Positions 3,377 to 63,394 are shown, counted from the stretch's first letter. The stretch: 64,000 nt of DNA from Escherichia coli (GCF_046105845.1 NZ_CP151004.1), one strand, 5' to 3'. Numbers and translations: made by a program. The notes: a model not told the origin generated them from the letters alone.

Positions 3377-6103
3377 ATGGCTACAATTCATGTAGACGGC
3401 AAAGAATACGAGGTCAACGGAGCGGACAACCTGCTGGAAGCTTGTCTGTCTCTGGGCCTTGATATTCCTTACTTTTGCTGGCATCCGGCGCTGGGAAGCG
3501 TCGGTGCTTGCCGCCAGTGTGCGGTGAAGCAATACCAAAACGCGGAAGACACGCGTGGTCGCCTGGTGATGTCCTGTATGACACCGGCTTCCGATGGCAC
3601 CTTTATTTCCATTGACGACGAAGAAGCGAAACAGTTCCGTGAAAGTGTGGTCGAGTGGTTAATGACCAACCACCCGCACGACTGTCCGGTATGTGAAGAG
3701 GGCGGTAACTGCCATCTTCAGGATATGACTGTGATGACCGGACACAGCTTCCGTCGCTACCGTTTCACCAAACGTACCCACCGTAATCAGGATTTGGGGC
3801 CATTCATCTCTCACGAAATGAACCGCTGCATCGCCTGCTACCGCTGCGTGCGTTACTACAAAGATTACGCTGACGGCACGGACCTGGGCGTTTACGGTGC
3901 GCACGACAACGTCTACTTCGGTCGCCCGGAAGACGGCACGCTGGAAAGCGAATTTTCCGGTAACCTGGTCGAAATTTGCCCGACCGGCGTATTCACCGAC
4001 AAAACGCACTCCGAGCGTTACAACCGTAAATGGGATATGCAGTTTGCGCCGAGCATCTGCCAGCAATGTTCCATCGGCTGTAACATCAGCCCCGGCGAGC
4101 GTTATGGCGAACTGCGTCGTATCGAAAACCGTTACAACGGTACGGTAAACCACTACTTCCTCTGCGACCGTGGTCGTTTCGGTTACGGTTACGTCAACCT
4201 GAAAGATCGTCCGCGTCAGCCAGTACAGCGTCGTGGCGATGATTTCATTACCCTCAACGCCGAACAGGCAATGCAGGGCGCGGCAGATATTCTGCGTCAG
4301 TCGAAGAAAGTGATCGGCATTGGTTCTCCGCGTGCCAGCGTGGAAAGCAACTTTGCGCTGCGTGAGCTGGTGGGCGAAGAAAACTTCTACACCGGTATCG
4401 CTCACGGTGAGCAGGAACGTCTGCAACTGGCGCTGAAAGTGCTGCGTGAAGGCGGCATTTATACGCCGGCACTGCGCGAAATCGAATCTTACGATGCGGT
4501 ACTGGTGCTGGGCGAAGACGTTACCCAGACCGGCGCGCGCGTCGCGCTGGCAGTTCGTCAGGCGGTGAAAGGTAAAGCACGCGAAATGGCGGCAGCACAG
4601 AAAGTGGCTGACTGGCAAATTGCGGCAATCCTCAACATCGGCCAACGTGCGAAGCATCCGCTGTTTGTTACCAACGTTGATGACACCCGTCTGGATGATA
4701 TCGCGGCGTGGACTTACCGCGCACCGGTTGAAGATCAGGCGCGTTTAGGTTTTGCCATCGCTCATGCGCTGGACAACTCCGCACCAGCGGTTGACGGTAT
4801 CGAACCTGAGCTGCAAAGCAAAATCGACGTCATCGTGCAGGCTCTGGCGGGTGCGAAGAAACCGTTGATTATCTCCGGGACGAACGCCGGTAGCGCTGAA
4901 GTGATTCAGGCTGCGGCTAACGTGGCGAAAGCCCTGAAAGGTCGCGGCGCTAACGTCGGTATCACCATGATTGCCCGTTCCGTCAACAGCATGGGGCTGG
5001 GCATTATGGGCGGTGGATCGCTTGAAGAAGCGTTAACCGAACTGGAAACCGGACGCGCCGATGCGGTGGTGGTGCTGGAAAACGATCTGCATCGTCACGC
5101 TTCCGCTACCCGCGTGAATGCTGCGCTGGCGAAAGCGCCGCTGGTGATGGTGGTTGACCATCAACGCACAGCGATTATGGAAAACGCCCATCTGGTACTT
5201 TCCGCCGCCAGCTTTGCTGAAAGCGACGGTACGGTAATTAATAATGAAGGTCGCGCCCAACGTTTCTTCCAGGTTTACGATCCGGCTTATTACGACAGCA
5301 AAACTGTCATGCTGGAAAGCTGGCGCTGGTTACACTCGCTGCACAGCACCCTGCTGAGCCGTGAAGTGGACTGGACGCAGCTCGACCACGTGATTGACGC
5401 TGTTGTGGCGAAAATCCCGGAACTGGCAGGTATCAAAGATGCTGCGCCGGATGCGACATTCCGTATTCGTGGGCAGAAACTGGCCCGTGAGCCGCACCGT
5501 TACAGCGGTCGTACCGCCATGCGCGCCAACATCAGCGTTCATGAGCCGCGTCAGCCGCAGGATATTGACACCATGTTCACCTTCTCGATGGAAGGTAACA
5601 ACCAGCCGACCGCGCACCGTTCGCAAGTGCCGTTTGCCTGGGCACCGGGCTGGAACTCCCCGCAGGCGTGGAACAAATTCCAGGACGAAGTGGGCGGCAA
5701 ACTGCGCTTTGGCGATCCAGGTGTGCGTCTGTTTGAAACCAGCGAAAACGGTCTGGATTACTTCACCAGCGTACCGGCACGCTTCCAGCCGCAGGCAGGG
5801 AAATGGCGTATCGCGCCGTACTACCACCTGTTTGGCAGCGATGAATTGTCACAGCGTGCTCCGGTTTTCCAGAGCCGTATGCCACAGCCGTACATCAAAC
5901 TTAACCCGGCGGATGCCGCGAAGTTGGGTGTGAACGCGGGCACTCGCGTCTCCTTTAGCTACGATGGCAACACGGTCACGCTGCCGGTTGAAATCGCCGA
6001 AGGGCTGACGGCAGGGCAGGTTGGCTTGCCGATGGGTATGTCCGGCATTGCTCCGGTGCTGGCGGGCGCGCATCTTGAGGATCTCAAGGAGGCACAACAA
6101 TGA
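3377..6103 (+). CDS. nuoG: NADH-quinone oxidoreductase subunit G
   Basis: 908 aa from [11 protein letters not shown]; GGAAG RBS 7 nt upstream of ATG at 3377 (ORF track starts 6 nt earlier at 3371); N-terminal ferredoxin-like Cys clusters. Confidence 0.93.
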
Positions 6104-7077
6104 GTTGGATATCACCGGAACTGATTGAGATCCTGCTGACCATCCTCAAAGCGGTGGTGATCCTGCTGGTGGTTGTCACCTGTGGGGCATTCATGAGCTT
6201 TGGCGAACGTCGCCTGCTGGGTCTGTTCCAGAACCGTTACGGACCTAACCGTGTTGGCTGGGGCGGTTCGCTCCAGCTGGTCGCGGACATGATCAAGATG
6301 TTCTTTAAAGAAGACTGGATCCCGAAATTCTCGGATCGCGTCATCTTTACCCTGGCACCGATGATTGCCTTTACCTCGCTGCTGCTGGCCTTTGCGATTG
6401 TGCCAGTCAGCCCAGGTTGGGTGGTTGCCGACCTGAACATCGGGATTTTGTTCTTCCTGATGATGGCCGGTCTTGCGGTCTACGCGGTGCTGTTTGCGGG
6501 CTGGTCAAGTAACAACAAATACTCGCTGCTGGGTGCGATGCGTGCTTCTGCGCAGACTCTGAGCTACGAAGTGTTCCTCGGGCTTTCCCTGATGGGCGTG
6601 GTGGCGCAGGCCGGTTCATTCAACATGACCGACATCGTCAACAGCCAGGCGCATGTGTGGAACGTCATCCCGCAATTCTTTGGTTTTATTACCTTTGCCA
6701 TCGCGGGCGTGGCGGTGTGTCACCGTCACCCGTTTGACCAGCCGGAAGCCGAGCAGGAACTGGCGGATGGTTACCACATTGAATATTCCGGCATGAAGTT
6801 CGGTCTGTTCTTCGTGGGCGAATACATCGGGATTGTGACCATCTCTGCACTGATGGTGACGCTGTTCTTCGGTGGCTGGCAAGGCCCGTTGTTACCGCCA
6901 TTCATCTGGTTCGCGCTGAAAACCGCGTTCTTTATGATGATGTTCATTTTGATTCGTGCGTCGTTACCGCGTCCGCGTTATGACCAGGTAATGTCCTTCG
7001 GCTGGAAAATCTGCCTGCCGCTGACGCTGATCAACTTGCTGGTAACGGCGGCTGTCATTCTCTGGCAGGCGCAATAA
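6100..7077 (+). CDS. nuoH: NADH-quinone oxidoreductase subunit H (membrane)
   Basis: 325 aa polytopic membrane protein; overlaps nuoG stop by 4 nt. Confidence 0.95.
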
Positions 7078-48329: not shown

Positions 48330-49406
48330 ATGAAATTGACGCTGAAAAACCTTAGCATGGCGATCATGATGAGTGGAATGATCATGGGAAGCAGTGCAAT
48401 GGCGGCGGACAGCAACGAAAAAATAGTCATCGCCCATCGCGGTGCCAGTGGATATTTGCCGGAGCATACGCTGCCAGCAAAAGCGATGGCGTATGCGCAG
48501 GGAGCGGATTATCTGGAACAAGATTTAGTGATGACGAAGGATGACCATCTGGTTGTTCTGCATGACCATTATCTCGATCGTGTTACTGATGTTGCCGATC
48601 GTTTCCCGGATCGGGCGCGCAAAGACGGTCGTTACTACGCGATAGATTTCACGCTCGATGAAATTAAGTCACTGAAATTTACCGAAGGTTTCGATATTGA
48701 AAATGGTAAGAAAGTACAGACTTATCCGGGGCGTTTCCCGATGGGTAAATCTGACTTCCGGGTACACACTTTCGAGGAAGAGATTGAATTTGTTCAGGGG
48801 TTAAATCACTCTACCGGGAAAAATATCGGTATCTATCCAGAAATTAAAGCGCCGTGGTTCCATCATCAGGAAGGGAAGGATATTGCGGCAAAAACGCTGG
48901 AAGTGCTGAAGAAATATGGTTACAGCGGTAAGGACGACAAAGTTTATTTGCAATGTTTTGATGCCGATGAACTGAAGCGTATTAAGAATGAGCTGGAACC
49001 TAAAATGGGCATGGACCTCAATCTGGTACAGCTGATTGCCTATACCGACTGGAACGAAACTCAGCAGAAACAGCCGGACGGAAGCTGGGTTAATTACAAC
49101 TACGACTGGATGTTTAAGCCGGGGGCCATGAAACAGGTGGCGGAATATGCTGATGGTATTGGTCCGGATTATCATATGTTGATTGAGGAGACATCGCAGC
49201 CAGGTAATATCAAACTCACTGGCATGGTGCAAGATGCTCAGCAGAACAAGCTGGTAGTGCATCCTTATACCGTGCGGTCAGATAAACTGCCTGAATACAC
49301 TACTGATGTGAATCAGTTATATGATGCTCTGTATAACAAAGCGGGTGTAAATGGGCTGTTTACTGATTTCCCTGATAAGGCAGTAAAATTCCTTAATAAA
49401 GAGTAA
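48330..49406 (+). CDS. glpQ: Periplasmic glycerophosphodiester phosphodiesterase
   Basis: 358 aa from MKLTLKNLSM signal peptide; IVIAHRGASGYLPEHT motif. Confidence 0.95.
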   Translation: MKLTLKNLSMAIMMSGMIMGSSAMAADSNEKIVIAHRGASGYLPEHTLPAKAMAYAQGADYLEQDLVMTKDDHLVVLHDHYLDRVTDVADRFPDRARKDGRYYAIDFTLDEIKSLKFTEGFDIENGKKVQTYPGRFPMGKSDFRVHTFEEEIEFVQGLNHSTGKNIGIYPEIKAPWFHHQEGKDIAAKTLEVLKKYGYSGKDDKVYLQCFDADELKRIKNELEPKMGMDLNLVQLIAYTDWNETQQKQPDGSWVNYNYDWMFKPGAMKQVAEYADGIGPDYHMLIEETSQPGNIKLTGMVQDAQQNKLVVHPYTVRSDKLPEYTTDVNQLYDALYNKAGVNGLFTDFPDKAVKFLNKE

Positions 49407-49415
49407 TGCTATTGC

Positions 49416-49439
49416 AGGATGGCGTTCATGCGCCATCCT
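49416..49439 (+). terminator. Hairpin after glpQ
   Basis: 9-bp stem AGGATGGCG/CGCCATCCT. Confidence 0.45.
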
Positions 49440-49626
49440 CTGCTAAAGCGAAATAATGCTACTTCCGGTTGTTCTATTCATTAACCGGTGCATCCTGTTA
49501 AAAAAGATGCCAACATATTTGCATAAAACTCATTCGTTAAGAAAGCTAACACTGGGCATTGTTATTCCTTAAACAGTATGAATTGGGTTCAATAATAAAT
49601 TGTATTGCAGTTTATACTGTAAAGTA

Positions 49627-50697
49627 TTATTCGCATTTCGGGAAAGTAAAGAAAATATTAATGTATCTTATTAATTTATTATATTGTTCTTGAGTGAATG
49701 CTATTTGCACACCTTCAGGATAATATTCACCAGTAATAACCAGTTGTCCATTGCTGTGTTGTACCATTAAACCTTTTTTTTCCTTTGGATCTTCAAACTT
49801 AGAATTATCAAACGTGAAGATGTTATTTTCCTGTTTTGAGTAAGCAAAGAAATCTCGTGTATAGCTGAAACTATCATTTATTAATGGTGCTAACTTTTTG
49901 TCGGCGATATCGATAAGCTCACCACTTAATTTATTGATGTATTTCATTTGGTTCAATTTTTTCTGCGCTTGTACAATTTGCTTGTAGGTATTTTTAATTT
50001 CCTTAGAAGAATTCTTGAATTTATCATAGCGTTCCACGGAGGATGCGTATTTGTACCATTCTGTATTTTTCTCAGAATGTAGTAGCAGGTCTGTATATTT
50101 TTTTTGATCGCTGTAAAGTTGACTTTTAATACTTTCCTCACTGCTGGTTTTATAAGGTTTATCAGAGCTGTTTATTTTTGAAATGTCTTTTTCTGTCGGT
50201 GACTGGACCGTGTTGTGGATATTTTCTTTTATAACATGTTCATTGATGATGTTAATTGCAGTTTCATATTCATTTAAGTTTATTGTTCTTTGTGAAATAA
50301 ACCCTTCTTTGCTTTCGACACTCAAAATACCTTCGTTGTTTTCACCTCGGGTAAAGGTAAGGGTATAGGGTTCATAATCCGCTGCAAATTCATTTTTATA
50401 CGTTATGACATGTTCGACAAAATGTCTTATTGGTACGAAACCATAACTGTGAACGTCAATTTTTTGGGTCTTGATACTATCAATTGCATCTGAGGCTTTC
50501 GTGAAAAAAGCCAATAAATTAGCTATGCTGTCTGCTGAAGTTGATAACCCGTATCTACTTTGAGATATTTTTAGAAACTCATCGCAAAAAAACTCAAGTT
50601 TCGCGGTTTGTTGTGATTCTTTGTAAATTTCTGCTGGTTGCAATTTATTATTTTGTAAAATATTACAGCGAGATAAGTGAATAGATGTATTTGGCAT
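49627..50697 (-). CDS. Uncharacterised AT-rich ORF (hypothetical cytoplasmic protein, Lys/Asn/Glu-rich)
   Basis: 368-codon open frame on the ORF track; GGAA RBS 7 nt before the internal ATG at 50697 gives 356 aa; no signal peptide or TM; no motif I recognise; base composition strongly AT-rich compared with glpQ and inaA flanks. Confidence 0.7.
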   Translation of the reverse strand: MPNTSIHLSRCNILQNNKLQPAEIYKESQQTAKLEFFCDEFLKISQSRYGLSTSADSIANLLAFFTKASDAIDSIKTQKIDVHSYGFVPIRHFVEHVITYKNEFAADYEPYTLTFTRGENNEGILSVESKEGFISQRTINLNEYETAINIINEHVIKENIHNTVQSPTEKDISKINSSDKPYKTSSEESIKSQLYSDQKKYTDLLLHSEKNTEWYKYASSVERYDKFKNSSKEIKNTYKQIVQAQKKLNQMKYINKLSGELIDIADKKLAPLINDSFSYTRDFFAYSKQENNIFTFDNSKFEDPKEKKGLMVQHSNGQLVITGEYYPEGVQIAFTQEQYNKLIRYINIFFTFPKCE

Positions 50698-55698: not shown

Positions 55699-57984
55699 TC
55701 AGATCTTACATGCGCCGCTTTCGCAGCCATCGTCCTGGATTGACGGCACCAGATCGTCTTGTGCGTCTTCAGCACCGTCACGGGTGTTCTGATAATACAG
55801 CGTTTTAACCCCGAATTTGTAGGCGGTGAGCAGGTCTTTCAGCAGTTGCTGCATCGGCACTTTTCCTGACGGGAAGCGTGACGGATCGTAGTTGGTGTTA
55901 GCAGAGATCGACTGATCGATAAATTTCTGCATGATACCCACCAGTTGCAGATAGCCATCGTTACCCGGCATTTCCCACAGCAGTTCATAGGCGTCGTGCA
56001 GATGCTCGTAGTCCGGCACCACCTGGCGCAGAATACCGTCTTTCGACGCTTTGATGCTGACGTAACCACGCGGCGGTTCAATACCGTTAGTGGCGTTAGA
56101 GATCTGCGAAGAGGTCTCGGACGGCATCAGAGCAGAAAGCGTGGAGTTACGCAGGCCGTGCGTTTTGATTGACTCACGCAGTGCTTCCCAGTCGTAATGC
56201 AGCGGCTCATTAGCGATGGCATCCAGATCTTTCTTATAGGTATCGATCGGCAGGATCCCTTTCGCGTAAGTGGTTTCGTTAAACCACGGGCACGCGCCTT
56301 GCTCTTTCGCCAGCTCATTAGAGGCTTTCAGCAGGTAATACTGAATCGCTTCGAAGGTTTTATGCGTCAGGTTGTTGGCGCTGCCGTCGGAGTAGCGTTT
56401 ACCGTGCTTCGCCAGGTAGTAAGCGAAGTTGATCACTCCAATACCCAGCGTACGACGACCCATCGCTCCACGTTTGGCGGCCGGGATCGGGTAATCCTGA
56501 TAGTCCAGCAGCGCGTCGAGTGCGCGTACCGCCAGAATCGCCAGCTCTTCCAGTTCATCAAGGCTGTTAATTGCGCCCAGGTTGAAAGCAGACAACGTAC
56601 ACAGCGCGATTTCACCGTTCTCGTCGTTGACATCATTCAGCGGTTTGGTCGGCAGGGCGATTTCCAGGCACAGGTTAGACTGGCGCACTGGCGCGATGGC
56701 CGGATCAAACGGGCTATGGGTATTGCAGTGGTCAACGTTCTGAATATAGATACGACCGGTAGACGCACGTTCCTGCATCATCAGCGAGAACAGCTCAACG
56801 GCTTTCACACGCTGCTTGCGGATGCTGTCGTCTTTCTCATATTTGGTGTACAGGCGTTCAAACTCTTCCTGATCGGCGAAGAACGCGTCGTACAGCCCCG
56901 GTACGTCGGACGGGCTGAACAGGGTGATATCTTCACCTTTCAGCAGACGGGTATACATCAGTTTGTTGATTTGTACCCCGTAGTCCATATGACGCACGCG
57001 GTTGCCTTCCACCCCACGGTTGTTTTTCAACACCAGCAGGCTTTCCACTTCCAGATGCCACATCGGGTAGAACAGCGTAGCCGCACCGCCACGCACACCG
57101 CCCTGAGAGCAGGATTTCACCGCTGTCTGGAAATGCTTATAGAACGGAATACAACCGGTATGGAACGCTTCGCCACCGCGAATCGGGCTACCCAGCGCAC
57201 GAATACGCCCGGCATTGATGCCGATCCCGGCACGCTGGGAAACGTATTTAACAATCGCGCTGGAGGTGGCGTTAATGGAATCCAGGCTGTCACCGCACTC
57301 GATCAGTACGCAGGAGCTGAACTGACGAGTCGGGGTACGCACGCCGGACATGATTGGCGTCGGCAGCGAAATTTTAAATGTGGAAACCGCGTCGTAAAAA
57401 CGCTTCACGTATTGCAGGCGCGTTTCACGCGGGTAGTTCGAGAACAGGCACGCGGCAACCAGAATATAAAGGAACTGGGCGCTTTCGTAGATTTCGCCGG
57501 TCACACGGTTCTGCACCAGATATTTGCCTTCCAGCTGCTTAACGGCAGCATAAGAGAAGGTCATATCACGGTCGTGATCGATAAACGTGTCCATCTGCTT
57601 GAACTCTTCTTCCGTGTAGTCTTCCAGCAGATGATTATCGTATTTGCCCATCTCGACCATTTTCACCACGTGGTCGTACAGCGCAGGCGGCTCAAACTGG
57701 CCGTAGGCTTTTTTACGCAGGTGGAAGATTGCCAGGCGCGCGGCGAGATACTGATAATCCGGCGCATCACGGGAGATCAGGTCTGCGGCAGCCTTGATAA
57801 TGGTTTCGTGGATGTCAGAGGTCTTGATACCGTCATAAAACTGAATGTGGGAGCGCAGTTCGACCTGGGAAATCGAAACGTTATGCAGTCCTTCTGCCGC
57901 CCAATCCAGAACGCGATGGATTTTGTCGAGATTGATGCGCTCTGTGCTACCGTCGCGCTTTGTCACCAGCAGATTCTGATTCAT
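55699..57984 (-). CDS. nrdA: Ribonucleotide reductase class Ia alpha subunit
   Basis: 761 aa; N-terminal ATP-cone, C-terminal redox tail CESGACKI. Confidence 0.97.
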
Positions 57985-58061
57985 GTATGTCGTACCTGTT
58001 TTTGGAATTCTTTCCGCAATAGTTTCGTGCAGACTACCTGTAGTACGGGAAGCTGCTTAGA

Positions 58062-58108
58062 ACACTATATATAGGGGGTATGTTTGGGATTCACTGCAAG
58101 ATAGTGTG
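58062..58108 (-). promoter_or_regulatory. Candidate NrdR boxes upstream of nrdA
   Basis: ACACTATATATAGGG and CACTGCAAGATAGTGTG resemble the NrdR palindrome acaCwAtATaTwGtgt; exact boundaries uncertain. Confidence 0.45.
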
Positions 58109-58137
58109 AAAATGGCCCTCTTGCAAGTGCATAACTT

Positions 58138-58146
58138 TGTGGATAA
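58138..58146 (-). promoter_or_regulatory. DnaA box in nrdAB promoter region
   Basis: TGTGGATAA on plus strand = TTATCCACA consensus on minus strand. Confidence 0.55.
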
Positions 58147-58679
58147 CTCAGGAAGGAAAAAGTGGCTTTCGCGCACCTTAGGTCAGACAAGGTGTCCGGG
58201 AAAGTCAATGGGAAGAGAAAAATTTGTTAAAAATAACTGTTCGGCGATTTCTTGAACGGAAGAATAGGTTAGATAAATTGATATAGATGGTTTATTAATC
58301 TTTTGGCTAATGATTGCAAAAATTGATCTAAGCACGAATCATCGCATAATCTGATGTATCAGTTCTGGTCAATATATAAGCGAATGTAAGCGATTGTTGA
58401 TATCGAAATGGTTGTTTTCTCTTCGGTTATTGTTAAATGCGAAGCCATTTTGTTAATTTACCTTATATTATAAGAAAATTATTCATTACTTTAATTCAGT
58501 TTAAATATAACTAATATCCCTTAAGGTGATTAACTTGAATTATGACGCACTGATATTATTCATGAAATAATAACAAAATAGCCATTGCACGGGGTTGAAC
58601 AATTTACAAAAGAAAAATAACCCATATCGTATAATGCGATTAAATATGCCGTCTTATAGAAAATGATGGTCAGATTAAT

Positions 58680-61600
58680 ATGCGGATTATTTTTCTACGC
58701 AAGGAGTATTTATCTTTACTCCCGTCAATGATTGCGTCTCTTTTCTCTGCTAACGGTGTCGCGGCGGCCATTGATTTATGCCAGGGATATGATATCAAAG
58801 CGAGTTGTCACGCCAGCAGGCAAAGCCTTTCAAGCTTTACGCAGGACTGGAGCATCGCCGATGGGCAATGGCTGGTTTTTTCGGATATGACTAATAACGC
58901 CAGCGGTGGGGCCGTATTTTTGCAACAAGGAGCGGAGTTTTCTCTATCGCCAGAAAATGAAACTGGAATGACTCTGTTTGCCAATAATACTGTCTCAGGA
59001 GAATATAATAACGGCGGGGCAATATTTGCTAAAGAAAACTCAACGCTGAATCTTACTAATGTTATTTTTTCCGGTAACGTTGCAGGTGGCTATGGTGGCG
59101 CAATCTATTCTTCTGGTACTAACGATACCGGTGTCGTCGATTTAAGTGTCACTAACGCCGTGTTTCGCAATAACATCGCTAATGACGGCAAAGGTGGTGC
59201 AATTTATACCATCAACAATGACGTCTATTTAAGTGAAGTTATTTTTGACAATAACCAGGCATATACATCAACAAGTTACAGTGATGGCGATGGGGGCGCA
59301 ATCGATGTCACCGATAATAATAGCGATATCACGCATCCGTCAGGTTTCACAATAATAAATAACACCGCATTTACAAATAACACTGCCGAAGGTTATGGCG
59401 GGGCAATTTATACCAATAGCGTGACGGCTCCCTATCTTATTGATATTTCGATTGATGACAGCTACAGCCAGAACGGCGGCGTGTTAATCGATGAGAACAA
59501 TAGCGCGGCAGGTTATGGGGATGGTCCTTCCACTGCGGCGGGCGGCTTTATGTATCTCGGCTTAAGTGAAGTTACCTTTGATATTGCCGACGGAAAAACG
59601 CTGGTTATCGGCAATACAGAGAATGACGGAGCTGTTGACTCTATTGCTGGTACCGGGGTAATCACCAAAACAGGTTCCGGCGATCTGGTACTTAATGCAG
59701 ATAACAATGACTTTACTGGCGAGATGCAGATAGAAAACGGTGAGGTTACCCTGGGTCGCAGCAACTCCCTGATGAATGTCGGCGATACGCATTGCCAGGA
59801 CGATCCGCAAGACTGCTACGGTCTGACGATAGGGAGTATTGATCAGTATCAGAATCAGGCTGAGCTAAACGTTGGCTCGACCCAACAAACTTTTGTGCAC
59901 GCATTGACGTGCTTTCAGAATGGCACTTTAAATATCGATGCTGGTGGCAATGTTACTGTTAATCAAGGCAGTTTTGCTGGCACCATCGAAGGTGCTGGTC
60001 AGCTCACCATTGCGCAAAACGGCAGCTACGTGCTGGCAGGGGCACAGTCGATGGCGCTAACCGGCGATATAGTGGTGGATGCTGGTGCGGTGCTTTCGCT
60101 GGAAGGCGACGCGGCAGATCTTGCCGCTCTCCAGGACGATCCGCAGTCGATCGTGTTAAACGGCGGTGTGCTTGATCTCTCTGATTTCGCCACCTGGCAG
60201 AGCGGCACATCATACAACGATGGCCTTGCAGTCAGCGGCAGCGGCGGTACGGTTATCGGCAGTCAGGATGTGGTGGATCTCGCAGGTGGCGACAATTTGC
60301 ATATCGGCGGCGACGGGAAAGATGGCGTCTACGTGGTGATCGATGCGGGCGACGGGCTGGTTAGCCTGGCAAACAATAATAGTTACCTGGGCACCACGCA
60401 AATCGCTTCCGGTACGCTGGTGGTGAGCGACAACTCGCAGCTTGGAGATACCCATTACAACCGCCAGGTTATCTTTACCGATAATCAACAAGAAAGCGTG
60501 ATGGAGATTACTGCCAATGTCGATACTCGCTCTACAACGACTGAGCATGGGCGTGATATTGAAATGCGCGCCGACGGTGAAGTGGCAGTTGATGCGGGGG
60601 TAGACACGCAGTGGGGCGCACTGATGGCTGACAGCAGCGGGCAGCATCAGGATGAGGGTAGCACATTGACGAAAACGGGGGCGGGTACGCTGGAGCTGAC
60701 CGCCAGCGGTACAACGCAGTCGGCGGTACGTGTCGAAGAAGGCACCCTGAAAGGTGATGTTGCGGATATCCTTCCTTATGCTTCGTCACTGTGGGTTGGT
60801 GATGGGGCAACGTTCGTTACTGGCGCGGATCAGGATATTCAGTCAATTGATGTTACTTCCAGCGGCACTATCGACATCAGCGATGGTACGGTTTTGCGCC
60901 TGACCGGGCAGGATACTTCCGTCGCACTTAATGCCTCACTGTTTAACGGCGATGGGACGCTGGTGAATGCCACCGATGGCGTGACGTTGACAGGCGAGCT
61001 TAATACCAACCTTGAAACTGACAGCCTGACTTATCTTTCCGACGTAACAGTTAATGGCAATCTGACCAATACGTCCGGTGCGGTCAGCCTGCAAAATGGC
61101 GTCGCTGGCGACACGCTGACGGTAAACGGTGATTATACCGGCGGTGGTACGCTACTGCTCGATAGCGAATTAAACGGCGATGACTCGGCAAGTGACCAAC
61201 TGGTGTTGAACGGTAATACTGCTGGCAACACGACCGTGGTAATTAATCCCATTACGGGTATTGGTGAGCCGACATCTACAGGCATTAAAGTGGTTGATTT
61301 CGCAGCCGATCCAACGCAGTTTCAAAACAATGCGCAATTCAGTCTGGCAGGCAGCGGCTACGTCAATATGGGAGCATATGACTACACGCTGGTGGAAGAT
61401 AACAACGACTGGTATCTGCGATCGCAAGAAGTAACGCCACCATCGCCACCTGATCCAGACCCGACTCCCGATCCTGATCCCACGCCGGATCCTGATCCAA
61501 CACCCGACCCGGCCCCGGACCCTACGCCTGCCTACCAGCCGGTGTTGAATGCCAAAGTTGGTGGATATTTTAATAACCTGCGGGCGGCAAATCAGGCGTT

Positions 61601-62438
61601 TGTGATGGAGCGACACGATCACGCTGGTGGCGATGGTCAGACGCTGAATTTACGTGTTATCGGCGGAGATTATCATTACACAGCAGCGGGGCAACTGGCT
61701 CAGCATGAAGACACTTCTACGGTGCAGCTTAGCGGCGACTTGTTTAGCGGGTGCTGGGGCACGGATGGCGAGTGGATGCTTGGGGCGGTTGGTGGCTACA
61801 GTGATAACCAGGGCGACAGCCGCTCGAATATGACCGGAACTCGCGCCGATAACCAGAACCACGGTTATGCCGTTGGTCTGACCTCAAGCTGGTTTCAGCA
61901 CGGTAATCAGAAGCAGGGGGCCTGGCTGGATAGCTGGCTGCAATACGCGTGGTTTAACAATGATGTTTCCGAACATGAAGATGGCGTGGATCATTACCAC
62001 TCATCGGGGATTATCGCCTCGCTGGAAGCCGGGTATCAGTGGTTACCGGGGCATGGAGTGGTGATTGAACCACAGGCGCAGGTGATTTATCAGGGCGTGC
62101 AGCAGGATGATTTTACAGCCGCTAACCATGCGCGCGTGTCACAATCGCAGGGCGATGATATTCAGACGCGGCTGGGTTTACACAGCGAATGGCGTACCGC
62201 TGTTCATGTCACACCAACATTAGATCTGAATTATTATTACGATCCCCATTCGACGAAAATTGAAGAAGATGGCAGCACTATCAGTGACGAAGCGGTAAAA
62301 CAACGGGGGGAAATAAAAGTGGGAGTCACGGGCAATATCAGTCAGCGAGTGTCCCTGCGTGGTAGCGTGGCGTGGCAGAAAGGGAGTGATGATTTTGCCC
62401 AGACGGCAGGGTTTTTGTCGATGACGGTGAAATGGTAA
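58680..62438 (+). CDS. yfaL: AIDA-I-type autotransporter adhesin
   Basis: 1252 aa; extended signal region; passenger rich in G/N/T beta-helix-type repeats; Pro/Asp/Thr linker; C-terminal beta-barrel ending in KW. Confidence 0.9.
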   Translation: MRIIFLRKEYLSLLPSMIASLFSANGVAAAIDLCQGYDIKASCHASRQSLSSFTQDWSIADGQWLVFSDMTNNASGGAVFLQQGAEFSLSPENETGMTLFANNTVSGEYNNGGAIFAKENSTLNLTNVIFSGNVAGGYGGAIYSSGTNDTGVVDLSVTNAVFRNNIANDGKGGAIYTINNDVYLSEVIFDNNQAYTSTSYSDGDGGAIDVTDNNSDITHPSGFTIINNTAFTNNTAEGYGGAIYTNSVTAPYLIDISIDDSYSQNGGVLIDENNSAAGYGDGPSTAAGGFMYLGLSEVTFDIADGKTLVIGNTENDGAVDSIAGTGVITKTGSGDLVLNADNNDFTGEMQIENGEVTLGRSNSLMNVGDTHCQDDPQDCYGLTIGSIDQYQNQAELNVGSTQQTFVHALTCFQNGTLNIDAGGNVTVNQGSFAGTIEGAGQLTIAQNGSYVLAGAQSMALTGDIVVDAGAVLSLEGDAADLAALQDDPQSIVLNGGVLDLSDFATWQSGTSYNDGLAVSGSGGTVIGSQDVVDLAGGDNLHIGGDGKDGVYVVIDAGDGLVSLANNNSYLGTTQIASGTLVVSDNSQLGDTHYNRQVIFTDNQQESVMEITANVDTRSTTTEHGRDIEMRADGEVAVDAGVDTQWGALMADSSGQHQDEGSTLTKTGAGTLELTASGTTQSAVRVEEGTLKGDVADILPYASSLWVGDGATFVTGADQDIQSIDVTSSGTIDISDGTVLRLTGQDTSVALNASLFNGDGTLVNATDGVTLTGELNTNLETDSLTYLSDVTVNGNLTNTSGAVSLQNGVAGDTLTVNGDYTGGGTLLLDSELNGDDSASDQLVLNGNTAGNTTVVINPITGIGEPTSTGIKVVDFAADPTQFQNNAQFSLAGSGYVNMGAYDYTLVEDNNDWYLRSQEVTPPSPPDPDPTPDPDPTPDPDPTPDPAPDPTPAYQPVLNAKVGGYFNNLRAANQAFVMERHDHAGGDGQTLNLRVIGGDYHYTAAGQLAQHEDTSTVQLSGDLFSGCWGTDGEWMLGAVGGYSDNQGDSRSNMTGTRADNQNHGYAVGLTSSWFQHGNQKQGAWLDSWLQYAWFNNDVSEHEDGVDHYHSSGIIASLEAGYQWLPGHGVVIEPQAQVIYQGVQQDDFTAANHARVSQSQGDDIQTRLGLHSEWRTAVHVTPTLDLNYYYDPHSTKIEEDGSTISDEAVKQRGEIKVGVTGNISQRVSLRGSVAWQKGSDDFAQTAGFLSMTVKW
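61447..61530 (+). repeat. Tandem imperfect 18-bp repeats encoding (PDPDPT)n linker inside yfaL
   Basis: Protein segment PPSPPDPDPTPDPDPTPDPDPTPDPAPDPTP; DNA repeats of GATCC(A/T)GA(C/T)CC(G/C)AC(T/G/A)CC. Confidence 0.7.
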
Positions 62439-62457
62439 TCGCTGTCTGACCGGCACT

Positions 62458-62575
62458 ATTGCCGGATGCGGCGTAAACGCCTTATCTGGCCTACGGAGAG
62501 CATTTGTAGGCCTGATAAGACGCGGCAAGCGTCGCATCAGGCATTGGCACGGTTGCCGGATGAATCCAAACAACA
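62458..62575. repeat. REP/BIME cluster between yfaL and ubiG
   Basis: GCCGGATGCGGCGTAAACGCCTTATCTGGCCTAC and GTAGGCCTGATAAGACGCGGCAAGCGTCGCATCAGGC palindromic units. Confidence 0.6.
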
Positions 62576-62578
62576 ACC

Positions 62579-63301
62579 TCACTTATTCTGCGTGTGCAGC
62601 ATATAGTTCACATCAACGCCGGGGCCGAGCTTAAAGGAATTAGTGATCGGGTTGTAATGCAGCCCAGTGATATGCCGCTCTTTTAAACTGGTCTGATCCA
62701 CCCAGCCCAGCAGCTCTGCCGGTTTAATAAACTTCTTCACATCATGCGTACCTTTGGGCACCATGCGCAAAATATATTCCGCGCCAACCACCGCCATCAG
62801 CCATGACTTGCCGTTGCGGTTAAGCGTTGAGAAAAAGACATCGCCGCCCGGTTTCACCAGTTGCGCACAGGCTCTGACCACTGACTGCGGATCGGGCACG
62901 TGCTCCAGCATCTCCATGCAGGTCACCACATCATACTGCCCGGCATGTTTTGCCGCGTGCTCTTCCACGGTTTCCTGCACGTACTCTACCTGAATGCCAC
63001 TTTCCAGCGCGTGCAACTTTGCCACCTGCAATGGCTCAAAGCCCATATCCAGACCGGTCACCGTCGCGCCTTCGCGCGCCATACTCTCGGCCAGAATGCC
63101 GCCGCCACAACCGACATCGAGCACCTTTTTGCCAAATAAACCGCCAGCACGCTCGGCAATATAGCCCAGACGCAGCGGGTTAATGCGGTGCAGCGGTTTG
63201 AACTCACCTTCAAGATCCCACCAGCGGGAGGCGACAGCTTCAAATTTAGCGATCTCTTCGTGGTCTACGTTATGGTTTACCGGCGATTTTTCGGCATTCA
63301 T
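62579..63301 (-). CDS. ubiG: Ubiquinone biosynthesis O-methyltransferase
   Basis: 240 aa from [10 protein letters not shown]; SAM motif [13 protein letters not shown]. Confidence 0.93.
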
Positions 63302-63394
63302 TGGCACTTCTACTCCGTAATTGGCAAGACAAACGAGTATATCAGGCATTGGATGTGAATAAAGCGTATAGGTTTACCTCAAACTGCGCGGCTG

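Follow-up and report, generated by a model that had tools for sequence, protein, structure and literature searches.

The question raised by this locus is whether the repeat-encoded linker of a surface adhesin of Escherichia coli acts as a rapidly switching element or represents a polymorphism that changes slowly between strains. The stretch of DNA analysed, hereafter the window, comprises 64,000 nucleotides of one strand of an E. coli genome (GCF_046105845.1, NZ_CP151004.1). In our reading, to which we assign a probability of roughly 85%, the region carries the yfaL (ehaC) gene of the chromosome, whose product is an adhesin of the classical type Va (AIDA-I-type) autotransporter class, with slow linker polymorphism caused by slippage and recombination. 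It should be noted that yfaL is an already characterised and widely conserved autotransporter gene of E. coli, and that the window copy is ordinary.

The identity of the gene is supported by several lines of evidence. The open reading frame begins with an ATG that corresponds to the start codon used by RefSeq in orthologues, as judged from annotated loci and alignment, and it contains no internal stop. Residues 1-1252 of its product align to positions 1-1250 of the NCBIfam equivalog profile NF007285 (YfaL/EhaC), with a score of 2778.5 bits compared to a cut-off of 1459. Together with the domain hits (Chlam_PMP, PATR, AC_1 and Autotransporter), this end-to-end match bears out the claim of an earlier annotation, made from the DNA alone and referred to here as the sequence-only reading, that yfaL is intact and full length. 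The gene order nrdA-ypaB-yfaL-ubiG is kept in every E. coli genome inspected (18 annotated loci), and the window gene shares its locus, domain order, upstream promoter hexamers and full-length equivalog match with YfaL/EhaC of K-12 and O157:H7. The protein is 94.3% identical to that of the K-12-type allele and 98.3% identical to that of strain ST2747, which also provides the closest whole-gene match (98.3%) to what is a mosaic gene; the exact protein sequence had no match in a collection of 15 billion proteins. The features of the locus are given in Table 1.

Table 1. Features of the yfaL locus, in coordinates of the window
Feature	Position	Strand	Evidence
nrdA	55699-57984	-	ORF call in window
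nrdAB promoter/leader part of the spacer, nrdA-proximal, ~265 bp, 42.5% GC	57985-58250	-	GC content, DnaA box, ypaB
ypaB small ORF	58112-58255	+	RefSeq ypaB annotation in orthologous loci
DnaA box, perfect	58138-58146	-	Motif in spacer
Very AT-rich yfaL upstream region, orthologous to the H-NS-bound K-12 promoter island	58250-58679	+	GC scan, spacer alignment, PMC3661553, PMC3946193
Sigma-70-like promoter, TTGATC-16-CATAAT	58323-58350	+	Identical to the K-12 yfaL constitutive promoter from genomic SELEX
yfaL/ehaC CDS, intact, 1252 aa	58680-62438	+	ORF call, domain and equivalog profiles
Putative signal peptide, 28 aa	58680-58763	+	First 29 residues identical to K-12-type YfaL
Autochaperone domain, residues 794-904, C-terminal part of the beta-helical passenger	61059-61391	+	Pfam PF18883 (AC_1), 2.4e-18; similarity to IcsA autochaperone 3ML3/5KE1 (sequence and fold)
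Pro/Asp/Thr linker, residues 920-950	61437-61529	+	TRF, in-frame reading, AF2 coil, strain comparison
Alpha-helical segment, expected in the barrel pore, residues 958-972	61551-61595	+	AF2 model helix 179-193; 4MEE match
12-stranded outer-membrane beta-barrel, residues 988-1251	61641-62432	+	PF03797 (991-1230), TIGR01414, AF2 model, Foldseek
Palindromic elements of REP/BIME-like type in the yfaL-ubiG interval, outside yfaL	62448-62592	.	Sub-threshold naRNA4 (REP-derived) hits
ubiG	62579-63349	-	ORF call in window

Profiles and an AF2 model agree on the architecture of a type Va autotransporter, in which a beta-helical passenger with an autochaperone is followed by a pore helix and a 12-stranded barrel. 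By sequence, the N-terminus shows an n-region that is basic, followed by a hydrophobic core and GVA-A; PMC13101318 gives the signal peptide of K-12 YfaL as 28 aa long. The model of residues 780-1252 (mean pLDDT 84.6) places a beta-helix (780-914), a low-confidence coil (917-954), the pore helix and the barrel in this order, with pLDDT values of 46-50 for the linker. The top structural match found by Foldseek is the transport unit of AIDA-I (4MEE; TM 0.92, rmsd 1.6 Å), on which the barrel and pore helix of YfaL superpose at 26% identity, and the autochaperone region matches that of IcsA (3ML3/5KE1) at about 30% identity. AIDA-I and IcsA, however, are paralogues and not orthologues of YfaL, and the PDPDPT repeat is absent from their junction regions; related enterobacterial autotransporters have different Pro-rich linkers at the same position. 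Based on this architecture, YfaL would be delivered to the periplasm through its putative Sec signal peptide, and its C-terminal barrel would insert into the outer membrane. The passenger would then be threaded outward, folding from its autochaperone end, and would remain tethered to the barrel by the pore helix and a Pro/Asp/Thr spacer of ~31 residues, for which an extended, unstructured conformation is predicted. In work by Roux et al. from 2005, forced expression of YfaL in K-12 reportedly resulted in adhesion or biofilm formation. According to PMC13101318, YfaL serves as a surface-display scaffold.

The spacer is encoded by an imperfect tandem repeat. TRF reports an array at positions 61452-61507 with a period of 18 bp, 3.1 copies, 78% matches and a score of 63, which is the only array scoring at least 50 in the 64-kb window. 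Read in frame, three 18-bp units (61449-61466, 61467-61484 and 61485-61502) each encode PDPDPT and are followed by the degenerate tail PDPAPDPTP (61503-61529), which includes a tandem CCCGGC/CCCGGA hexamer. The position previously proposed for the repeats, 61447-61530, was therefore essentially correct. Residues 916-950 include 17 P, 8 D and 5 T. Pairs of units have 13-15 of their 18 bases in common, and the longest run common to the units is 11 bp. The linker is two amino acids longer in the window allele than in K-12-type YfaL, PDPAPDPTP replacing PDPEPTP by way of the tandem CCCGGN hexamer.

The length of this linker differs between strains, as had been expected from the repeats. In two systematic 60-row samples of the 5,419 complete genomes of E. 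coli, a set skewed to clinical and laboratory strains, the linker span had the K-12 length in 78 of 120 cases (~65%), was 18 bp shorter in 25 (~21%) and 24 bp shorter in 5, and had the length of the window allele (+6 bp) in 9 (~7.5%). Junctions were also counted by exact matches to 36-mers chosen so as not to seed on any other allele, a count that junctions altered by a SNP escape. It gave 174 genomes with the -24-bp junction, 293 with the +6 hexamer-duplication junction, and 26 with the window allele shortened by precisely one 18-bp unit. A 168-bp linker deletion is a singleton (1 of 5,426 genomes) on an allele that is otherwise 100.0% identical to that of K-12, and a short B1-type linker, 14 residues below the K-12 length, is represented by one database protein. 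Alleles thus contain three or two full PDPDPT units, in addition to the +6, -24 and short B1-type classes, and these genome counts contradict an invariant repeat number. Among 16 intact alleles of 3.7 kb each, a single indel, of 6 bp and near position 60318, falls elsewhere than in the linker region; the linker is the indel hotspot of yfaL. In intact genes, all variants seen change the length by multiples of 6 bp and so preserve the reading frame, and no frameshifting linker variant was found among the intact alleles examined.

One alternative is that these differences are assembly artefacts of a repetitive, GC-rich stretch. Short-read contigs do break at the linker, the span measures 370 bp in the assembly N39, whose yfaL contains 25 stops, and one contig folds back at a 12-nt inverted repeat. 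Yet the exact junctions counted above recur identically in 26, 174 and 293 independent complete genomes, all lengths are in frame, and the lengths correlate with the flanking SNP haplotypes, which makes an artefactual origin barely credible. An inverted repeat of 12-13 nt flanks the linker and the pore helix (61439-61450 and 61626-61637). None of the 5,426 complete genomes contains the predicted K-12-type inversion junction, and an invertible segment was rejected as a fixed state.

The deletion end points suggest how the length classes may have arisen. The deletion in the -18 allele ends on the 11-bp direct repeat GATCCTGATCC, and the 168-bp deletion ends on the 12-bp direct repeat CTGATCCCACGC, an anatomy that points to slippage. 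Short direct repeats in the linker DNA, such as GATCCTGATCC and the CCCGGN hexamer, would occasionally permit replication slippage, leading to the in-frame gain or loss of 6, 18, 24 or more bp. Homologous recombination would then carry linker types between allele backgrounds, and as a net outcome strains would fall into a small number of stable length classes. The gene is mosaic: its passengers form two families that are about 82% identical to each other, and in the alleles L010 and L011 a B2-type passenger is joined to a linker and barrel start of the window type. Length class largely follows allele family, the short type being found in B1-like and the NPTPPP type in B2-like alleles, and because of this many of the length differences may be old.

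Taken further, the tracking of length class with allele family and the evident mosaicism, including the L010/L011 combinations, would fit a scenario in which the length classes are purely ancient allelic lineages that have been shuffled by homologous recombination, the repeats having no mutational role today. We consider this unlikely, since three lengths, including the exact loss of one unit, occur inside a single sub-family of 96-98% identity (the window, 1190, STN0717-11, Br_112 and 2012C-4221), and the unique 168-bp deletion sits on a K-12-identical allele. Moreover, all end points lie on direct repeats, and in paralogous autotransporters, too, the (TP)n at this position is variable. The proposal of the sequence-only reading that the repeats are a substrate for slippage or recombination is therefore supported, with the qualification that most of the differences are in-frame steps of 6, 18 or 24 bp that travel with allele lineages, and that change is rare on epidemiological time scales.

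A much faster process has also to be considered, namely that the linker is a hypermutable contingency locus in which frequent slipped-strand mispairing causes within-population heterogeneity and rapid antigenic or functional switching. Like the simple-sequence loci that undergo phase variation, yfaL carries a tandem repeat within the coding sequence of a surface protein, the only array of the window with a TRF score of at least 50, and its indels fall at the boundaries of the repeats. The singleton deletion on a background identical to the K-12 allele would fit such a process, and public short-read assemblies often break within the linker, which in principle could reflect within-sample heterogeneity. 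However, the units of yfaL are of 18 bp (or 6 bp) and as imperfect as described above, without near-perfect short repeats that would shift the frame or the promoter spacing. Since the repeats are too imperfect and the changes always in frame, they do not provide an on/off switch. Length heterogeneity among very close relatives is also lacking: the 1,921 genomes that are at least 99% identical to the 375-bp linker region of K-12 contain no indel, the 168-bp deletion remains the one singleton in 5,426 genomes, and within each of the sampled groups K-12 derivatives, O157:H7 and ST131 the linker has a single length. A synthetic query for a four-unit expansion of the window allele had no match in 5,419 genomes, its top hits being the two-unit allele. 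Because linker length is uniform within clones, we regard hypermutability as very improbable. Linker variation in yfaL is a slow allelic polymorphism, probably driven by slippage and recombination, as in pertactin, and not a high-frequency switch or phase variation.

The short-read contig breaks at the linker are recurrent in Shigella sonnei and E. coli. One scaffold has about 250 N at the S. sonnei break site. As to an insertion sequence in the S. sonnei linker, the contig ends carry yfaL sequence only, with zero IS bases, and searches of protein databases gave mostly partial proteins and no YfaL of S. sonnei in full length. The breaks may correspond to real within-sample heterogeneity or to a lineage-specific insertion or expansion; the length of the linker could be tuned by selection to the projection of the passenger through the O-antigen or capsule layer; and recombination between interchangeable modules, passenger and barrel, might preferentially take place at the linker. 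As a set, these ideas appear quite improbable to us.

Pertactin of Bordetella provides a close parallel to the slow polymorphism that we favour. Its R1 and R2 regions are Pro-rich repeats in a beta-helical autotransporter, R2 being unstructured and near the C-terminus of the passenger (PMC8931430), and, as in yfaL, the number of units differs between alleles on a slow, between-strain scale. The two systems differ in that the repeats are GGxxP/PQP in pertactin and PDPDPT in YfaL, that pertactin is cleaved from its barrel, and that variation in pertactin has been linked to vaccine-era allele shifts. We know of no immune or functional role for the YfaL linker. The census of linker alleles is the modestly new part of this work, H-NS binding at the upstream spacer having been published already, and it identifies the Pro/Asp/Thr spacer as the place where yfaL gains and loses sequence, slowly and in frame. 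It cautions against calling yfaL phase-variable, provides a minor typing marker, and indicates to users of the display scaffold that natural linkers tolerate lengths from 24 bp below that of K-12 (1242 aa) to the +6 bp of the window. Beyond such bookkeeping, its importance is small.

The expression of yfaL raises a separate question. The nrdA-yfaL spacer (57985-58679) is 695 bp long with 34.1% GC, and the 600 bp preceding the ATG have 32.7% GC; its yfaL-proximal core, with 28.8% GC, is the lowest 430-bp stretch of the window (mean 51.5%, sd 6.4%). The sequence-only reading of about 600 bp of very AT-rich, likely H-NS-silenced DNA was thus roughly right about the base composition, although the very AT-rich stretch extends over only about 430-500 bp. 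The spacer has the features of a promoter island, that is, AT-rich intergenic DNA with a surplus of promoter-like sites (7, compared to 3.6 +/- 1.6 expected), and the orthologous K-12 segment between yfaL and ypaB is listed as such an island, bound by H-NS in all ChIP-chip studies compiled (PMC3661553, Table 1). Genomic SELEX likewise flags this K-12 spacer for HNS and gives its promoter as TTGATC-16-CATAAT (PMC3946193). The likeness of the window spacer to these islands rests on orthology, H-NS occupancy being known from K-12; the promoter hexamers are the same, and a five-strain alignment of the spacer has a mean column identity of about 96%. A scan with the H-NS consensus gave a single site with one mismatch, TAGATAAATT at 58270-58279, which is weak evidence. 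H-NS binding is thus published for the K-12 spacer, and silencing of yfaL is inferred from it; in the literature consulted, no demonstration was found that H-NS represses yfaL or that yfaL is derepressed in an hns mutant. Since transcription would start inside a very AT-rich spacer that is coated by H-NS in K-12, yfaL is probably kept at low expression under laboratory conditions.

The spacer is common to yfaL and nrdAB, and it may be argued that it is mainly nrdAB regulatory DNA whose AT-richness says little about yfaL expression: it includes the ypaB/nrdA leader as well as the perfect DnaA box, and H-NS has been described as a repressor of nrdAB, the class Ia RNR genes (PMC4009431). This is distinctly unlikely, given that the extremely AT-rich core is the yfaL-proximal half, which bears the SELEX-defined yfaL promoter, and that the published island is placed between yfaL and ypaB and not at the nrdA promoter (PMC3661553).

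On the downstream side, an Rfam scan of positions 57800-62800 gave only sub-threshold REP-derived hits, all of them beyond the end of yfaL. The REP/BIME-like part of the query had a median of 11 matching places per genome, and in strain ST2747 a copy of IS1397 is inserted between yfaL and ubiG.

The uninterrupted ORF at 58680-62438 (+ strand) matches over its whole length the NCBIfam equivalog for the YfaL/EhaC AIDA-I-family autotransporter adhesin (2778.5 bits; cut-off, 1459 bits), which bears out the sequence-only reading of yfaL as an intact, full-length gene for a 1252-aa protein. The gene order nrdA-ypaB-yfaL-ubiG is annotated in all E. coli chromosomes inspected, and at least 80% of a 4.6-kb query is held by 5,415 of the 5,426 complete E. 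coli genomes: yfaL is a core-genome gene, and the whole locus fits the known biology of a known gene. The features of the locus and of the protein are listed in the table.

Features of the yfaL locus (window positions) and of the YfaL protein (residues)
Feature	Position	Strand	Source or remark
nrdA	55699-57984	-	neighbour of yfaL
ypaB small ORF	58112-58255		intact, 47 aa; overlaps nrdAB promoter region
DnaA box TTATCCACA	58138-58146	-	perfect, sole one in window; inside ypaB ORF
12-nt inverted repeat	61439-61450 and 61626-61637		flanks linker and pore helix
ubiG	62579-63349	-	neighbour of yfaL
Chlamydia-PMP and PATR repeats	YfaL passenger		Pfam
Autochaperone domain	residues 794-904		Pfam
Autotransporter beta-domain	residues 991-1230		Pfam
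Beta-helix / autochaperone	residues 780-914		AlphaFold2
Low-confidence coil (Pro/Asp/Thr stretch)	residues 917-954		AlphaFold2, pLDDT 46-50
Helix	residues 958-972		AlphaFold2
Barrel	residues 988-1251		AlphaFold2

The AlphaFold2 prediction for residues 780-1252 (mean pLDDT 84.6) resembles the IcsA autochaperone in its N-terminal part and, over the barrel and helix, superposes on the transport unit of AIDA-I (4MEE; TM 0.92, rmsd 1.6 Å). Since the low-confidence coil lies between the beta-helix and the pore helix and barrel, where a linker between passenger and barrel had been proposed, the repeat-encoded stretch is predicted to be a flexible spacer that joins the folded passenger to the pore helix. 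This stretch is indeed encoded by tandem imperfect 18-bp repeats: TRF reports an array at 61452-61507 (period 18, 3.1 copies, 78% matches, score 63), with no second array scoring at least 50 anywhere in the 64-kb window, and the three in-frame units, CCTGATCCAGACCCGACT, CCCGATCCTGATCCCACG and CCGGATCCTGATCCAACA, each encode PDPDPT, have 13-15 of 18 bases in common pairwise, and are followed by a tail, CCCGACCCGGCCCCGGACCCTACGCCT, that encodes PDPAPDPTP. The linker also contains five GATC (Dam) sites within 43 bp (61452-61497), and another lies at 61420; nowhere else in the window are GATC sites so densely clustered, which follows from the GAT-CCN (Asp-Pro) codon pairs.

Linker length is variable between strains, as the sequence-only reading had expected. 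With a 381-bp query spanning the linker, 5,419 genomes gave matches, and two evenly spaced 60-row samples, one for the window-allele query and one for the K-12-allele query, were pooled (n=120). The span was 375 bp in 78 (65%; the length of K-12, O157:H7 and ST131), 357 bp in 25 (21%; the short B1-type linker), 381 bp in nine (7.5%; the length of the window allele) and 351 bp in five (4%; K-12 length minus 24 bp); one row had 370 bp (the frameshifted pseudogene of N39), and the two partial matches were both VTB97022v, once per sample. Exact junction counts, based on 36-mers unable to seed on other alleles, gave 293 genomes with the CCCGGC-CCCGGA hexamer duplication of the window type, 174 with the 24-bp deletion junction, 26 with a window-type allele that lacks exactly one 18-bp unit (encoding a 1246-aa protein, e.g. 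in strain 2012C-4221), and one of 5,426 with a 168-bp in-frame deletion. When 16 intact alleles were aligned, all length differences fell in the linker except a 6-bp indel near 60318, which separates two deep passenger families; the protein lengths found were 1254, 1252, 1250, 1246, 1244, 1242 and 1194 aa. The protein database additionally holds a B1-type linker without one unit and a longer form in Escherichia sp. isolate KS167_9B, and the (TP)n found at the equivalent position differs among paralogous autotransporters. In E. coli 118UI, the linker has K-12 length and a PDPDPTP tail, giving four regular PDPDPT units through point substitution, not an indel.

This variation is slow, in frame and largely lineage-associated. 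Every variant within intact genes is a multiple of 6 bp; 1,921 genomes have at least 99% identity to the K-12 linker region and therefore no indel; and in both samples, K-12 derivatives, O157:H7 and ST131 genomes each show one length. The window allele expanded to four units was found in none of the 5,419 genomes. The multiples of 6 bp, the uniform clones and the lack of a four-unit allele argue against the linker being a phase-variable contingency locus; its behaviour is that of pertactin's proline-rich repeat regions, which vary slowly (PMC8931430).

The end points of the length changes lie on short direct repeats, a pattern typical of replication slippage or of deletion between short homologies. 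Recombination contributes too. The one-unit loss ends on two copies of GATCCTGATCC, and the extra 6 bp of the window allele is a tandem CCCGGN hexamer. The 168-bp deletion of VTB97022v lies between two copies of a 12-bp direct repeat, CTGATCCCACGC, in the passenger and in unit 2; it corresponds to about 61306-61479 of the window and takes away the autochaperone end together with the initial part of the linker, leaving 1194 aa. Apart from the deletion, this allele shows 100.0% identity to the K-12 type. The yfaL alleles are block mosaics: the passenger (58830-60930) falls into two deep families of about 82% nucleotide identity, with 40-48 differences per 150 bp, the barrel side (60930-62438) is far more conserved, and in strains 23CRST013 and CRECJHTL34 a B2-type passenger precedes a linker and barrel start of the window type. 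The window allele, whose linker is of the longest common class, is itself a patchwork in which every segment is identical or nearly so to some other allele; it is 98.3% identical to its nearest complete-genome allele, that of ST2747, and at the protein level it shares 94.3% identity with the K-12 type. No exact copy of the protein is present in a 15-billion-protein collection, as expected for a recombining surface-protein gene.

Hundreds of public short-read assemblies, notably of Shigella sonnei, have contig ends within or next to the linker, and in one scaffold a run of about 250 N occupies this place. No IS bases were found at the contig ends in the set of public S. sonnei and E. coli contigs inspected. 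In one contig, the first 122 nt form a fold-back with its switch point at the 12-nt inverted repeat ACCATCGCCACC / GGTGGCGATGGT; the K-12-type inversion junction occurs in none of the 5,426 complete E. coli genomes.

Upstream, about 600 bp of very AT-rich, probably H-NS-silenced DNA had been proposed. The nrdA-yfaL spacer (695 bp, 34.1% GC; 96% mean column identity in a five-strain alignment) is AT-rich, with 32.7% GC in the 600 bp ahead of the ATG, but the very AT-rich part spans just about 430-500 bp and the spacer also serves nrdAB: 58250-58679 has 28.8% GC, the minimum among 430-bp windows of the 64 kb (mean 51.5%, sd 6.4%), and the ~265 bp nearest nrdA (42.5% GC) are nrdAB promoter and leader DNA. 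The regions at about 14900-16500 and about 49200-50600 are also below 36% GC, comparable to that upstream of yfaL. In K-12, the yfaL/ypaB spacer figures among 78 "promoter islands" and is H-NS-bound in all compiled ChIP-chip sets (PMC3661553 Table 1), and genomic SELEX assigned to yfaL both an H-NS site and a promoter, TTGATC-16-CATAAT (PMC3946193), to which the hexamers at 58323-58350 are identical; repression of nrdAB by H-NS from the shared spacer has been reported (PMC4009431). Binding at the orthologous K-12 spacer is thus published, but repression of yfaL itself is likely by extension from it.

Downstream, yfaL and ubiG are separated by REP/BIME-like palindromes (62448-62592), with sub-threshold naRNA4 matches; this part of the query has a median of 11 matching places per genome. 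In the same spacer, ST2747 has an insertion of the IS1397 family (4827-6175 of its locus, L002). In 23CRST013 and CRECJHTL34, ubiG is followed by a frameshifted gene for a GntR-family regulator and an MFS transporter gene, and in the other strains examined by gyrA.
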